Below the pieces are notes generated by a model, which did not search any database, had not been told where the DNA came from, and saw only the letters and a program-made list of their open reading frames with translations. A stretch of 36,932 nucleotides of DNA, taken from positions 1 to 36,932 of the forward strand of contig JBHLPH010000018.1 in assembly GCA_048939625.1 (NCBI GenBank), read 5' to 3'. Source of the stretch: Promethearchaeota archaeon. Its GTDB lineage: Archaea > Asgardarchaeota > Hermodarchaeia > Hermodarchaeales > Hermodarchaeaceae. The position numbers and the translations under genes are program-made. Below, one piece after another: positions 23,497 to 29,593 of the stretch. Position 1 is the stretch's first letter; each line of letters begins with the position of its first letter.

Positions 23497-25893
23497 TCAC
23501 TCTGAGGAGGATAGATCTTCAGCCAATGTGATAGGAATTGGGAGGTTACAAGAGGGGCATCGTCCATCTCGGGTTAACCGTACCGAAATCGTTTGAATAC
23601 CAAGTCGTTCAACGAGTAGGGCGCCACAATTATGGCAAATAGTATTGGCGCCTTGATGGCCTGGAACATTCCCTAAGTACACGTATTTGAGACCCGCTCG
23701 CGACGAGGCGGCCGCGGCAGCTTCGAGTTTCTTAATTGGGGTAGGAGGGAGATGAGACATTTTGTGATGGGGGTAAAATCGTAAGAGGTGCAAAGGGGTG
23801 TCTTCTCCCAGTTCCTGGACAATCCATTGGGCAAGGGTTTCGGCTTCTTCAGTATCATCGCCAACATCGGATACAAGGAGATTTGTGATTTCAATATGGA
23901 TTTTGGCTGCTTTCATGGCCTTGAGGGCATCAAAAATCGGATCAACCGCGTTAACATTACAATAGTTCTTGTAGAAGGCTGGATTTGCATTGCCCTTGAA
24001 ATCAACGGTGGCGGCATCAAGGTAAGGCGCGATAGTTTCAATCGCGTCCGTTGTCATATAGCCATTAGTGACGAAGGTATTGAATAGCCCGTGTTCTTGA
24101 GCTATCTTCGCAGTATCATACGCGTATTCGAAAAAGATTGTGGGCTCAGTATAGGTATAGGAAACCCCTGTACATCCTGTATCTAACGCATACTCCACGA
24201 GTTTTTCCGGAGATATATTCCGTCCCACAATTTCGCGTTCATGACTAATCTGCCAATTTTGACAGTTTCCAACTCCAATGAAATTAGCAATGTAAGAGTG
24301 TTCATCTTCCACTTCCATATTGTATACCGGTCCGCTGTATGGTTTTCGATCAATTGCTTTTACCGGTAAAAGCCAAAAGTCCTTATAGCTTCTAAAGGCA
24401 ACTGCTCTATCAGGATCAGGTTTCTTCCTGCTTCCACCAACCAACTCCCTGCCAAATGTGTTTGTATTTACTTTAACATAATATAGTGTAGATTGGTGGA
24501 CTAATCTTCCTTCAATTTTTTTCTTTTCAGGAGGTTCCCATTCATACCACCCCGGCAAATAGCCAAGCTTGAGAAGAAGAAAATAGACACCAACTGAGAG
24601 TTTTTTTGAAATAGTGTTTATTGCTATATTATTGCCTGTTTCTGTTCCGTCTCCTTTGATATACGCCTTTAGAAATGATAGTATAACATTCTTTGGTGAT
24701 TTGAATATCAGATTAGGTACTTTCTTGCTTTTCGCGCTAGTTCCACAAAGCTGTTTGAATAGCACGCCAAGGGAGCTTTTATTAACCTCAACAGCTATCG
24801 TGGTCCTTCTTATTCTTTTTATAGCAGTAACACCAAAAATTTTCTTTAGAAGGAGGACCGTTCTTTCGGCTAATGCCTCCTCCTCGTGCCCGTAACTGAA
24901 ACTCACCTGGAATGAGTTAGGGCGGTTTTTGTCTTTAGTAACCCATCCTTCTGCAACATAATATCCTAGAAGCTCAGCGAATTCTTCGTTCATGGAAATT
25001 CTTGCAGGTATCCAACCTTTCTCGCTTCGAAACTTCAGATTGCCTTCATTTTCTTTTACATCATTTGTATAATAGAATGTCTTCTCCGTTATTCCTTCTC
25101 GTTCTATTTTTTTCATCAGCTTTCTCAAATATGTGGGATGCATACCAACATGCTTCCCTATTTCTCGTGAACTCAGACCCATCTCCCGTAATTTCATAAT
25201 TTCCTTGAGCTTCTTTTCATCCGTTATTCGTGATTTCTTAATCTTAGTTTTACTTTTTCCGATTATGGGAGCAATCTCGATGATTTCTCCTATAGTTTCA
25301 TTCGAGATCATTTTTGGTACAATCAGTAAATCTCCAACTCGAATATCTTCGGCTTTCTTCGTTGTTATGGCGCCATTCCAAACATAGATTTCGTGTTCAG
25401 GCGTACATTCTAAAGGAGGAAGATAAGAACCATTGATTTCTATGAGTTCTCCCTCGTAATTGTGGCAAAAGACCTTGCGTATTTTTCTCTTCTTTCCAGT
25501 TGCGCTATTCGTATAAGCATTTTTTACAATTCTAATATTCTCATTGTGAGTTTTTTCGGAACTAGCAAACAAATCTTGAATCTTTTGGGGAATTCCATTG
25601 CTGATTATCGTTGTTTCTGGATGGAAACAGAATTGGCATCTGAAATTACAACCAACGGTTGCTACGGACATGACCATGGAACCGGGATGGAAATGCCAAA
25701 GGGGTTTCTTTTCAATAGGGTCCGGATTGGCCGAGCAGGCTTTCCCATAGACTAGTGAATAGAGGGTGCCTTTCTCATTTTTACGTACTTGGCAGTACCC
25801 TAATTTGCCTTCAGCGATGGTGCAACGTCGACTACAGAGGTAGCAGCCGACCTTCTTGTCTGCAAGTTTATTGTAGAGCATCGCTTCGTGCAT
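23497..25893 (-). CDS. amrS: AmmeMemoRadiSam system radical SAM enzyme, intein-containing (798 aa precursor, 343 aa spliced)
   Basis: CYLCSRRC...GYCQVR, DPIEKKPLWHFHPG, GCNFRCQF|CQNWQIS, YTYTEPT, TNGY, YLGNV, CxxC...R...CPxC; GAGGT RBS before ATG 25893. Confidence 0.92.
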   Translation of the reverse strand: MHEAMLYNKLADKKVGCYLCSRRCTIAEGKLGYCQVRKNEKGTLYSLVYGKACSANPDPIEKKPLWHFHPGSMVMSVATVGCNFRCQFCFHPETTIISNGIPQKIQDLFASSEKTHNENIRIVKNAYTNSATGKKRKIRKVFCHNYEGELIEINGSYLPPLECTPEHEIYVWNGAITTKKAEDIRVGDLLIVPKMISNETIGEIIEIAPIIGKSKTKIKKSRITDEKKLKEIMKLREMGLSSREIGKHVGMHPTYLRKLMKKIEREGITEKTFYYTNDVKENEGNLKFRSEKGWIPARISMNEEFAELLGYYVAEGWVTKDKNRPNSFQVSFSYGHEEEALAERTVLLLKKIFGVTAIKRIRRTTIAVEVNKSSLGVLFKQLCGTSAKSKKVPNLIFKSPKNVILSFLKAYIKGDGTETGNNIAINTISKKLSVGVYFLLLKLGYLPGWYEWEPPEKKKIEGRLVHQSTLYYVKVNTNTFGRELVGGSRKKPDPDRAVAFRSYKDFWLLPVKAIDRKPYSGPVYNMEVEDEHSYIANFIGVGNCQNWQISHEREIVGRNISPEKLVEYALDTGCTGVSYTYTEPTIFFEYAYDTAKIAQEHGLFNTFVTNGYMTTDAIETIAPYLDAATVDFKGNANPAFYKNYCNVNAVDPIFDALKAMKAAKIHIEITNLLVSDVGDDTEEAETLAQWIVQELGEDTPLHLLRFYPHHKMSHLPPTPIKKLEAAAAASSRAGLKYVYLGNVPGHQGANTICHNCGALLVERLGIQTISVRLTRDGRCPSCNLPIPITLAEDLSSSE
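24265..25629 (-). mobile_element. 455-aa intein with LAGLIDADG homing endonuclease and HTH insert
   Basis: Block A CFHPET, block B CTPEHEI, LLGYYVAEG and FLKAYIKGDG, block F VYNMEVEDEHSYIAN, terminal VGN followed by extein Cys; visibly more AT-rich than flanks. Confidence 0.95.
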
Positions 25894-26103
25894 ACTTTGT
25901 AACCTCAACTTTCCATCATCACAGGACAAGTCCCATAATGGTTCGTGGGAATAGGAAAGGGAAGGATTATGGGAAAACCATAGAGATAGTTGCAGCACCG
26001 ATTCAAAGCTTTTCCCATATCGCAATACCAGAAAATTTGGTTAAAACGCAAGAACAGCACCTTAATAAGATAGAATTGATTTCGGTATTTTTGGTGAACT
26101 AGG

Positions 26104-27049: not shown

Positions 27050-28111
27050 TTACTCCGAGGGAATTGACCTTCGCTTCCAATAAACAAGTCCAGTAATGGC
27101 AGCGATGACCGCAATCACTCCAATAACTGCACCAAGAACTAAAGGCAGACTCGGAAAGACTGTTGCTACATTCCGAATGACTTCGAGTACATCATCAGTG
27201 TCTCTGACTTCCACATCGATTCGATACGGACCTCCAGTCAGTCCTGAAATAGCCCCTGTGTATGTATTACCTGAACCAACCAAGTTTAGCGTAGAAACAG
27301 GGGTAATTGGATTAGCCGTGGAATATACTTGAGCACGCACTGTATTAATCGCTGTGGAGTTGATACCAGGAAGCGTACTAGCTGGATCCGTGGTTATTAC
27401 GGATATGGTATAATCAGCCCCTGTTGGAGTAATGTTGACGCTCTCTGCATAGGATTGGTGGAGTGCAGCTTTGACTACCATAGCACATGCTTCATAGATT
27501 GGTGCCACGTCATATCCGCCGCCTGTTGGTCCGCCGCCTTGACTTCCTGTGATAATTCGATTATCATATACCAAGCGAACATTTTCTACGATGTTTGCAC
27601 CTGCAGTGAGCATTTCATCGTTACTCATCGAAAAAGAAGCAACTTTTGTTCCGGCACATATTGAACCTGCACTAGCAACAACTACGTTGCCAATGCAAAA
27701 TGTGGCAACAATTAATCCTTGGGCATGGGCGTTGGCAATGAGGTCACGAATTGTAAGACTAGCAATCAGAGAAGGCCAATTTCCGCCAGCCGGGATAAAC
27801 ACACAATCATATGTGCTAAGGGTATTTACATCGAAATTTTGGATAAGCATATCAGCAATGATCTCTCGAGGGGGTCGATTGTGACAAGCAGACACTGTTG
27901 TATCCAGTGCAAGGGCAATCGTTGTCGTTTGTACACCCCAGGCATCGAAGTAGTCTTGAGCTGTGAAGTAACTCCACCCAAACCCGTCTGAGACAATGAA
28001 TAGCACATGAACATCATTTATCGTCTGGCTAGATACCTGAAAAGGAGTAATCCCGACACAGCAGCTTAATGTTAACAGAGATAATAAGAAAACGATTTTG
28101 TAATTGATCAT
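27050..28111 (-). CDS. Secreted, C-terminally anchored DJ-1/PfpI-family protein
   Basis: Signal peptide; VLFIVSDGF, YDCVFIPAGG, VATFCIG, DNRIITG; beta-rich linker; TM plus WKRR. Start ATG 28111. Confidence 0.82.
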   Translation of the reverse strand: MINYKIVFLLSLLTLSCCVGITPFQVSSQTINDVHVLFIVSDGFGWSYFTAQDYFDAWGVQTTTIALALDTTVSACHNRPPREIIADMLIQNFDVNTLSTYDCVFIPAGGNWPSLIASLTIRDLIANAHAQGLIVATFCIGNVVVASAGSICAGTKVASFSMSNDEMLTAGANIVENVRLVYDNRIITGSQGGGPTGGGYDVAPIYEACAMVVKAALHQSYAESVNITPTGADYTISVITTDPASTLPGINSTAINTVRAQVYSTANPITPVSTLNLVGSGNTYTGAISGLTGGPYRIDVEVRDTDDVLEVIRNVATVFPSLPLVLGAVIGVIAVIAAITGLVYWKRRSIPSE

Positions 28112-28239
28112 ACCTCGAAACTCCTCATCTGAGTTCTTACAAAAGTTCACTTTGGAATGTATAATTTCATGGCAAACAACCAGTTCAGAAAATTTAGATT
28201 CAGTGTGATTTCAAATCGTATTTCCGAACAAACTGGTTC

Positions 28240-28530
28240 AGAAATAGAAAAAAGAATAGGGAGAGGGGCCTCGTCGCTTAACGGAGCCTCTCCCAAGATG
28301 CCATTCTAACCACCGACGAACTTGCCCTCTGTGTGAAAGAAGATGAGAGTGATACTGGATCTTGTGCGTTTTTTCCTGTATCACTCGTTTAATTGCTCTT
28401 GTGGGTTTCTCCCGACATCCATTTCGCAGGCATCTGCGAATATTCAAGTAAGTTCTTAGGCCTGCGAACAACAGCTAACCGGGATTTCCCCTGGCAGGGG
28501 ACGCGGGGATCCTGGTTGCTTTGTTTTTTG
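28240..28530. ncRNA. Candidate structured RNA / long 3' UTR with four stem-loops
   Basis: Stems at 28259-28294 (8 bp), 28347-28386 (9 bp), 28423-28468 (9 bp) and 28473-28520 (interrupted, nested TCCCCT/AGGGGA); T-tracts at both ends on opposite strands. Confidence 0.5.
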
Positions 28531-28534
28531 AGTC

Positions 28535-28648
28535 CTAAAGAACTCGCTCCCGTATATATGATTCAAATATGCGATTCTTGCGGTAATTTTCTTTCTCAAG
28601 GTTAATGTGAGGTTCATTGTGTTTCTCACCCTTGGATTTGGGTGTCAT
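28535..28648 (-). CDS. 37-aa small protein MTPKSKGEKHNEPHINLEKENYRKNRIFESYIRERVL
   Basis: Strong RBS GAGGTGAGGT immediately upstream of ATG 28648; this is the 3' part of the ORF-track 114-aa ORF. Confidence 0.55.
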   Translation of the reverse strand: MTPKSKGEKHNEPHINLEKENYRKNRIFESYIRERVL

Positions 28649-28688
28649 AGGTACCTCACCTCTTGGCGTGGAATCGATTTTCCGCTTC

Positions 28689-28830
28689 TGACACTCTGTA
28701 GGATTGCAGCTGAGTGTTCCAATGCTGATTTTATTTACGCTCAGTGTCATATTGATGTCACGCTGCGTCCCTAAGATGTCACACCGGTATATTAATATTA
28801 CTGTATGTGACAATATCATACGTGATAAAG
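28689..28830. promoter_or_regulatory. Divergent promoter region with phased TGTCA boxes (candidate operator)
   Basis: TGTCA at 28745, 28756, 28777 (degenerate CGTCC at 28766); inverse TGACA at 28689 and 28808; TGTCACA/TGTGACA flank TATTAATA. Confidence 0.55.
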
Positions 28831-28870
28831 CCTTACAAAAGCAAACTAATACAGATTGGATTGATTCATA

Positions 28871-29593
28871 ATGGACCACAATAAGGAAACTGAGAAGCCC
28901 TCACCACCCAGACCACCAGCCCCACCCACACCGCCGAAGCCCCCAAAACCTGAGGACTATGAAGATTTTATAACCGCACGACCGGAACCTATTCTTTTCT
29001 TAACCGAAGAACAGGAAGAGGTAGCAAAAGAGCATGGCGATATTATCAAAGCCATGATAGGAAAGAATCTCACGGCCAAAGAAGTTCATGCCTTGTATTT
29101 CAACCCAAACAAGGAAACTTATGATAAAACCATCAAGACTGTCTACCGGCACCTTGAAGTCCTCGAAAAGGCAGGTCTAGTCATCGAATGCGGCCACCGA
29201 AAACCCCATGACAGCCGGTTAACCGAGAAGCTATTTTGCCGATCAGCGAATATCTTCGTCCTTGGTGAAGGTCAGACCAAAAAAGAGTGGTGGAAAGAAG
29301 AGAAGGGAGAGAAAATCATTCAACGCATAAGCGTGCTTCTCCCTGAACTCCTCAGCTCGAAACTGAAGGACCAAACGGAGTTCAAGGCGTTAATGGAGCA
29401 GTTTCTCGAACAGCATGATAGCATTACTATGGAATTGTGGCGAAAAGCCCCCGAGAACGAGGGGATTTTTGAAATCTTCCGTGAAGCAAATCTCTGGGAA
29501 ATCAAATATCTCTCAGATTTGGTTTCAACCATTGGGTTAATCCTTCGCAATCCAGAACTCTGTGAGGGATTCAAAAAGGTCCTCAACAAGTAG
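28871..29593 (+). CDS. Winged-HTH (ArsR-like) transcriptional regulator with Pro-rich N-terminus
   Basis: LTAKEVH...TIKTVYRHLEVLEKAGLVIECG...TEKLFCRSA. Confidence 0.8.
   Translation: MDHNKETEKPSPPRPPAPPTPPKPPKPEDYEDFITARPEPILFLTEEQEEVAKEHGDIIKAMIGKNLTAKEVHALYFNPNKETYDKTIKTVYRHLEVLEKAGLVIECGHRKPHDSRLTEKLFCRSANIFVLGEGQTKKEWWKEEKGEKIIQRISVLLPELLSSKLKDQTEFKALMEQFLEQHDSITMELWRKAPENEGIFEIFREANLWEIKYLSDLVSTIGLILRNPELCEGFKKVLNK

Follow-up and report, generated by a model that had tools for sequence, protein, structure and literature searches.

A probable small-protein gene, restricted to one genus of Asgard archaea, with a nested second start, a structured 3' untranslated region and a divergent winged-helix regulator

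An organised stretch of DNA between two archaeal genes may encode a regulatory RNA, a small protein or both, and the gap at positions 28151-28870 of contig JBHLPH010000018.1, from a Promethearchaeota archaeon, poses this question. The window, meaning the whole 36,932-nt stretch analysed, comes from a 2.3-Mb archaeal metagenome-assembled genome that is 88% complete, and its contig encodes a fragment of archaeal 23S rRNA and a Ras-family GTPase. The gap is flanked by a DJ-1/PfpI gene on the minus strand (27050-28111 or 28150) and by a winged helix-turn-helix (wHTH) gene on the plus strand (28871-29593); its length becomes ~760 bp if the ATG at 28111 is the start of the DJ-1 gene. The initial annotation read the minus strand of the gap as a ~500-nt dual-function transcript, in which a 37-codon open reading frame (ORF) is followed by a multi-hairpin RNA, controlled by the adjacent regulator. 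The comparative evidence favours a different answer: the gap probably encodes a genus-restricted small protein and not a riboregulator, the gene having a local regulator, two starts and a structured 3' untranslated region (UTR).

The gap is as organised as had been claimed, each feature listed for it having been found where it had been placed. No known RNA family had been recognised there, and a search of Rfam agreed: between 28050 and 28950 no family reached its gathering score and a permissive search was likewise empty, the best E-values being ~1-8 at 11-19 bits, compared with cut-offs of 39-428. A search of the gap for tRNA genes with ARAGORN found none. The stretch is single-copy in the 2.3-Mb assembly, where other matches to it are only 15-35 nt long with E >= 0.005, and it is therefore not a miniature inverted-repeat transposable element (MITE); a dispersed repeat is ruled out as well. 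The unit lies beyond chance because it is conserved genus-wide.

The host's class is represented by 19 genomes in two genera. When the stretch was compared by BLAST with 40 relatives, it was matched solely within the host's genus, positions 28409-28814 of the window at 78-82% in four genomes and positions 28535-28814 at 68-76% in six more. A profile search with the peptide recovered one copy in 12 of the 14 genus genomes; a 13th has a copy cut by a contig end, and four additional copies are situated on independent, unrelated metagenome contigs. The set that recurs in these 12 genomes and four contigs consists of an invariant TATA block, a strong Shine-Dalgarno (SD) sequence, the 37-codon ORF and a terminal hairpin followed by a T-run. 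The same profile had no match in the four genomes of the sister genus, and the peptide matched nothing in Pfam, NCBIfam or the ESM Atlas. The family is tiny, with 7 clusters in a set of 1.8 billion representatives and 20 in one of 5.8 billion proteins, every one of the latter labelled "hypothetical". As judged from these searches, the predicted small-protein family is strictly lineage-restricted, to one genus of Asgard archaea.

The 37-codon ORF itself was confirmed (28535..28648, minus strand; ATG at 28648, codons 28648-28538, stop at 28537-28535). It is 36-37 codons long in 12 genomes, in which start and stop are retained, and 39 codons long in the metagenome variant P0004; no locus lacks the start, the stop or the SD. 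The pairwise ratio of nonsynonymous to synonymous substitution (dN/dS) in this part is mostly 0.1-0.5 and exceeds 0.75 in only 4 of 66 pairs, as expected of a peptide under purifying selection. The conservation profile gives an identity of 0.86-0.89 for the promoter, and of 0.94-1.0 among the five closest genomes for the C-terminal coding part.

The coding region appears to begin further upstream, however. In all 16 loci the same frame is open for another 34-35 codons and reaches back to a conserved ATG at 28750; in shuffled sequences of the same composition the chance of this is ~0.13 per lineage. In several loci stop codons occur just upstream of this ATG, once in the adjacent codon. The distance from the TATA block (28784-28801) to the internal ATG is either 135 or 138 nt in all twelve genomes, so that the only indel is one of 3 nt, or one codon. 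Over codons 6-29 substitutions favour third positions (0.59 vs 0.40 and 0.40; permutation p = 0.0007), and throughout the upstream part the proportion of synonymous differences (pS) exceeds that of nonsynonymous differences (pN) in 27 of 28 pairs. The same periodicity test gave no signal on the first 132 nt of the tail, which served as a control. The first 34 codons are thus fast-evolving, yet codon-like, and the N-terminal part is recognisably conserved as protein within a distant subgroup. Gene callers mostly annotate the relatives at 70-72 residues; one gave 39. The locus has the marks of a protein-coding small ORF: its frame, start and stop are conserved, it is under purifying selection, and its substitutions show codon periodicity.

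The region that the initial annotation had taken for a leader closed by TGACACT / AGTGTCA is, on this evidence, probably coding. The 7-nt inverted repeat is present (28689-28695 / 28743-28749), but it is not conserved in relatives, and the region itself carries the coding signature. The TGACACT stretch consists of the fourth GACA unit of the candidate operator described below together with codons 2 and 3 of the gene. Twelve sequences from the TATA block to the internal ATG were folded jointly with RNAalifold, giving -1.9 kcal/mol and no meaningful helix, and hence no conserved leader structure. Two longer versions of the frame, of 114 codons from GTG 28879 and of 94 codons from ATG 28819, were rejected because relatives have stops upstream of 28750.

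The internal start has a conservation of its own. The SD sequence AGAGGTGAGGTA (28652..28663, minus strand) is situated so that 8 nt separate its GGTG from the ATG at 28648, and the very strong ribosome-binding site described earlier stands, being kept in all loci. None of the 16 loci departs from its core, GAGGTGAGG, even at the third positions of the Gly and Glu codons. The codon after the core takes nine different forms, and other conserved residues of the small protein do vary synonymously. Read from the alignment, the internal SD is conserved at the nucleotide level and is no by-product of coding. Across the genome, GGTG is strongly over-represented 5-10 nt ahead of the first ATG in long ORFs and peaks at 6-7 nt, and the 8-nt spacer at 28648 falls within the usual working distance of this genome. 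Only ~13% of long ORFs have GGTG at that place, and most genes here therefore seem to lack an SD. The 3' end of 16S rRNA, sought for its anti-SD, is absent from the assembly.

A gene of 71 codons plus stop (28535..28750, minus strand), its frame open from the conserved ATG and with a conserved internal start, is the most likely arrangement, as it is the simplest account of both signals, the open upstream frame and the invariant SD. The 37-codon ORF would then be the conserved C-terminal module and likely a short proteoform. Probably both forms, of 71 and 37 residues, are made, sharing a C-terminal amphipathic helix. The AlphaFold2 (AF2) model of the small protein is mostly of low confidence; its sole confident element is one helix, which spans residues 51-70 in the numbering of the long form.

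It is unlikely that translation is confined to the 37-codon ORF, the 100 nt that separate 28750 from 28648 being a true 5' UTR whose open frame and periodicity are a leftover or a coincidence. Such an arrangement would account well for an SD core that is invariant down to third codon positions, for a codon between SD and ATG that varies as freely as a spacer, and for a C-terminal part far better conserved than the N-terminal one; the 39-residue product of one gene caller agrees with it also. However, the frame would have to be open in 16 of 16 loci by chance, the sole indel to be of 3 nt, the third-position bias to be accidental and the N-terminal residues to be conserved in the distant subgroup for no reason of coding, and the supposed leader has no conserved structure. 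Moreover, the ATG at 28750, 37 nt past the TATA box, stands at practically the same distance from it as does the start of an esterase gene (38 nt) behind a homologous promoter in more distant relatives. A single 71-codon gene with a nested second start accommodates these observations more readily.

The promoter from which this gene would be read contains a near-palindromic TATA-like box, TATTAATA (28797-28790, minus strand), confirming the sequence noted earlier near ~28790. The box is part of an invariant 18-nt block, GTAATATTAATATACCGG (28784..28801, minus strand), which is identical at every module-bearing locus, occurs once in the genome and is probably common to both divergent genes. The proposed divergent transcription from the wHTH gene is supported by this shared block. 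A crude genome-wide scan of TATA-to-ATG distances yielded no usable peak. A probable operator array (28743..28814, minus strand) surrounds the box, with TTGTCAC upstream of the TATA sequence and four GAC(A/G) units downstream, at 28780, 28769, 28759 and 28748, that is at spacings of 11, 10 and 11 nt. The ATG at 28750 falls inside the last of these units. GTGACAT and ATGACA are invariant across 12 genomes.

Homologues of the regulator in the sister genus and beyond keep this TATA-plus-GACAT layout. A related block, GTAATACTAATA, adjoins distant wHTH homologues, whose promoters have ATGACAT/ATGTCAT palindromes in the same position. In the sister genus GGTAATACTAATATA and an ATGACAT-N3-ATGTCAT palindrome directly drive a SnoaL-like gene, and in more distant homologues a similar block drives the esterase gene. 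Since the homologous cassette drives these genes in relatives, the small gene, tail included, stands between a promoter-operator cassette of older origin and the genes served there. Three of the compared loci show the cassette with its differing targets, SnoaL-like gene or esterase: L033 from the sister genus (positions 2250-2400), L044 and L046. A 22-codon upstream ORF begins with the ATGACAT half-site of L033, ahead of the SnoaL-like gene, which hints that the small gene may have arisen from a leader of this kind.

The regulator gene (28871..29593, plus strand) encodes a protein of 240 amino acids with a Pro-rich N-terminus, a winged helix and long C-terminal helices. Against Pfam its matches to HTH_20 and HTH_5 remain under the cut-off, and phmmer relates it to PH1932 (1ULY) with an E-value of 0.005. 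The AF2 model, with a pLDDT of 87, has 1ULY/2CWE as its top fold matches (E 1.5e-8, probability 1.00, 210 columns), followed by PadR and Phr (2P4W). More distant homologues of the regulator bear PF12840/PF01022; by the fold match and the domains of these homologues it is a PH1932/Phr-like protein of the ArsR type. Orthologues occur in 14 of 14 genus genomes, one gene copy being cut by a contig end. PH1932 of Pyrococcus horikoshii (1ULY/2CWE) and Phr, the regulator of heat shock in P. furiosus (2P4W), have the same ArsR-like winged helix followed by long C-terminal helices, but they are only ~20% identical to the present protein, which has in addition the Pro-rich N-terminal extension.

Phr is a negative regulator that binds a palindrome and represses its targets (PMC10746257). 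The candidate operator here resembles that of Phr in having (near-)palindromic or repeated half-sites over the core promoter (PMC10746257), and differs in its GACA-type motif and in having apparently a single target in the genome. The GACA units on either side of the TATA box and the start site are the probable binding sites of the wHTH protein. A predicted complex of the wHTH protein with the small protein scored 0.27, where the mark is 0.32, and counts neither way. A paralogue of the regulator (~30% identity) is present in every genus genome; here it is found at C3:36666-37289, directly downstream of a large methyltransferase-like gene and with no adjoining small ORF.

The tail, which extends ~290 nt past the stop here and varies from ~170 to ~520 nt across lineages, is the part on which the proposal of a regulatory RNA was founded. 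Its hairpins have different histories. H1 (28469..28526, minus strand) is stable here and in several lineages with differing stem sequences, and has decayed in a whole subgroup. H2 (TTCGCAGGC / GCCTGCGAA; 28423..28468, minus strand), a 9/9 bp repeat, stands ~70 nt past the stop, a distance that is constant where the hairpin is present (11 of 16 loci); its identity is 0.79-0.91 among close genomes and ~0.4 overall. H3 (GAGTGAT... / ...ATCACTC; 28347..28386, minus strand) has 13-nt arms; in 7 of 16 loci the base of its stem keeps a fixed position while the inner parts vary, elsewhere it is deleted or replaced, and it is wholly missing in one genome. Identity across 28310-28396 is ~0.25, the random level, even among the five closest genomes. 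The conserved stems of the tail are nearly invariant and the remainder is unalignable.

The terminal hairpin (GGGAGAGG / CCTCTCCC) with its T6 (28248..28294, minus strand) is the probable 3' end of the transcript. The stem-loop occupies 28294-28259, with 8/8 bp, and the T6 lies at 28253-28248. A hairpin with a purine arm and a pyrimidine arm, followed by a T-run, recurs in 11 loci with stem changes on both sides and is the tail's most constant element, though, like H2, it is only moderately conserved in sequence. These 11 hairpins have minimum free energies (MFE) of -15 to -24 kcal/mol and runs of T4-T8, as predicted of a terminator. In two distant members a hairpin and T-run come immediately after the stop.

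The four stem-loops and the hairpin with U-tract that the initial annotation described are thus all in place, but the four-hairpin tail is not conserved as a unit. As to covariation, the RNAalifold consensus contains H2 as its sole helix, most of its pairs being unchanged in 10-11 of 13 aligned loci and one showing a compensatory change; outside this consensus, the terminal hairpin has changes on both sides of its stem. Compared with dinucleotide shuffles, the tail does fold better, as had been asked of it: for 28230-28540 the minus strand has z = -2.95 and the plus strand z = -2.09. In ten tails compared, the sense-strand z is negative every time (mean ~-2.3) and below the antisense value in 7. 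Such a pattern fits a long 3' UTR under selection to fold and to end transcription better than it fits an RNA of defined conserved architecture. Conserved ORFs on either strand of the tail were considered and rejected; tblastn matches occur in all frames and in close relatives only, and hence reflect nucleotide similarity. A decayed copy of a neighbouring gene was rejected too, the best E-value of ~0.2 being noise. Tail motifs were not found elsewhere in the genome.

Some RNA evidence comes from contigs assembled from relatives in two metatranscriptome runs of different studies. These runs covered small shares of the stretch, and the uncovered parts carry no meaning. One RNA contig of 241 nt follows 28648-28535 with two differences and continues for 127 nt into a diverged tail; another, of 459 nt, runs from ~28753 to 28513 and then 218 nt further. 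The RNA contigs reach neither the promoter nor the wHTH gene, whereas DNA contigs cross both. This evidence is weak but consistent with a transcript of about the ~500 nt first proposed, which probably runs to the hairpin and T-run.

That the transcript acts through both a 37-residue peptide and its multi-hairpin tail, the tail or a processed fragment of it being a regulatory RNA, is quite unlikely. A tail is kept in all lineages and its sense strand folds better than chance in each of the ten loci; H2 and the base of H3 stand at constant distances from the stop in several lineages, the stem of the terminal hairpin changes on both sides, and in relatives the RNA contigs take in 127-218 nt of tail. 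Small-protein-coding small RNAs (spRNAs) with long UTRs exist in Methanosarcina mazei (PMC11456600; bioRxiv 10.1101/2025.10.28.685009). A regulatory RNA is nevertheless difficult to reconcile with a segment, 28310-28396, at random identity among the closest genomes, with the loss of H3 in one genome and the decay of H1 in a whole subgroup, with the two distant members that have a hairpin and T-run right after the stop, or with a consensus that retains H2 alone and one compensatory pair. Rfam offers no match, and the tail motifs occur nowhere else in the genome, where no search for targets was made. Because relatives do not share the four hairpins as one set, the claim of a dual-function RNA lacks comparative support beyond the general tendency of the tail to fold.

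Bacterial dual-function small RNAs, for example SgrS/SgrT and RNAIII/delta-haemolysin, have conserved base-pairing regions. They share with the present locus the combination of a small ORF and structured non-coding parts in one transcript; the difference is that here the non-coding tail is the least conserved part. A fully bifunctional unit, in which two nested proteoforms of 71 and 37 residues are made, the tail is processed to a 3'-UTR-derived regulatory RNA and a Phr-like repressor serves this single target, is a decidedly doubtful proposition. To our knowledge, no small-protein-coding regulatory RNA of this kind has been described in Asgard archaea.

An attenuator-like leader, in which translation of the small ORF would set read-through or termination at the hairpins and oligo-T for the DJ-1/PfpI or SnoaL-like gene, is very improbable, because the peptide is conserved, the downstream gene is variable and promoter-like elements of its own precede that gene where the spacer was read. 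The idea draws on the sister genus, where the same promoter directly drives the SnoaL-like gene, on four genus genomes in which this gene follows the tail within ~100 nt, and on the five closest genomes, in which a repeated TTCGC(A/G)G allows two mutually exclusive pairings with CTGCGAA. This alternative pairing is found in one subgroup only, however. Purifying selection sets the peptide apart from typical leader peptides, and the hairpins begin 10-70 nt past the stop, beyond the reach of a ribosome stalled within the ORF. The downstream gene has its own AT-rich box in the window and in two relatives, and palindromes of the TTCTGAAC type precede it in the window and in five other loci. The features of a leader-peptide attenuator were not found at this locus, and we know of no ribosome-mediated attenuation established in archaea.

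A sense/antisense pair, with a plus-strand RNA ending opposite the 3' end of the small ORF at the H1 hairpin and T6 (28520-28535), can hardly be the explanation: H1 is followed by TTTGTTTTTT on the plus strand, which itself folds better than shuffles (z = -2.09), and pairs of antisense and small-protein RNAs exist in M. mazei (bioRxiv 10.1101/2025.10.28.685009), but the plus-strand T-run (28520-28537), which resembles a convergent terminator, is unique to this genome, relatives having mixed bases there, and the antisense z is weaker than the sense z in 7 of 10 loci.

Returning to the small-protein gene, the comparative data establish its conservation, its coding signatures and its predicted terminator, and a likely course of expression may be built on them. 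The invariant near-palindromic TATA block at 28784-28801 would serve two divergent transcripts, the one on the minus strand starting near 28765 if the usual archaeal distance from TATA box to start applies. The conserved ATG at 28750, ~15 nt into this transcript and inside an operator half-site, would open the 71-codon frame, and the invariant in-frame SD and ATG (28662 / 28648) would offer ribosomes a second entry. The wHTH protein would bind the GACA units, which surround the TATA box and start site at intervals of one helical turn, and, by analogy with Phr, would repress the small gene, probably itself too, until a signal releases it. The tail hairpins would most likely stabilise the RNA, and transcription would end at the hairpin and oligo-T (28294-28248), insulating the next gene, which has promoter-like elements of its own.

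Several points weigh against this reading. The compared loci are close kin of one genus, and their number therefore overstates their independence. The long form alone leaves the invariant SD unexplained and the short form alone the open upstream frame, and one genome has GTG as its internal start. GAGGTGA is not enriched genome-wide (270 sites vs 243 expected), so that the motif by itself proves nothing. From the RNA contigs neither transcript ends nor strand nor level can be read, and DNA may be present in RNA libraries. Finally, that a compact genome keeps a tail of ~170-520 nt, and that this tail is better folded than its shuffles, hints at something beyond a passive UTR.

Small proteins are badly under-annotated in archaea, and no experiments on those of Asgard archaea are known to us. 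The present locus belongs among the archaeal small-protein genes and spRNAs, and it shows no new RNA class or mechanism. As a small-protein case it is unusually well supported by comparison, having a probably dedicated regulator, a recognisable candidate operator and a conserved nested second start. It is also a testable example of an archaeal promoter-operator cassette that switches targets, since its target in relatives is an esterase or SnoaL-like gene, and a new small gene is here inserted ahead of them. A folding tail of several hundred nucleotides in a compact genome merits experiment.

Both spRNAs and small proteins are known in M. mazei and Haloferax volcanii (PMC11456600, PMC10117724, bioRxiv 10.1101/2025.10.28.685009). 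The spRNAs of these species are likewise short archaeal transcripts (~500 nt here) with an ORF of ~70 codons or fewer and long untranslated parts, and the small proteins are likewise lineage-restricted and without a match to known families. There is no sequence relation, and translation of the present gene is predicted from sequence. The gene differs further in its in-frame second start with an SD of its own, its unusually long hairpin-rich 3' UTR and its pairing with a divergent, probably dedicated regulator.

Some observations concern the genes beyond the tail. The DJ-1/PfpI gene (27050-28150) encodes a protein with a signal-like N-terminus and a C-terminal membrane helix, and some genus genomes have it interposed between tail and SnoaL-like (Lumazine_bd_2) gene. 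Comparison of the loci L009, L010, L013 and L014 shows that the SnoaL-like gene directly follows the tail where the DJ-1/PfpI gene is missing. Inverted repeats of the TTCTGAAC / GTTCGGAA type precede the DJ-1/PfpI gene at 28178-28246, beside an AT-rich box, GAAATTATAC (~28150). They recur in L010, L011, L012, L015 and L018, four of which have the DJ-1 gene, L010 being the one that does not, and they look like the operator of a different regulator. Further along the window, a radical SAM gene (23497-26025) is split by an intein with a LAGLIDADG domain.

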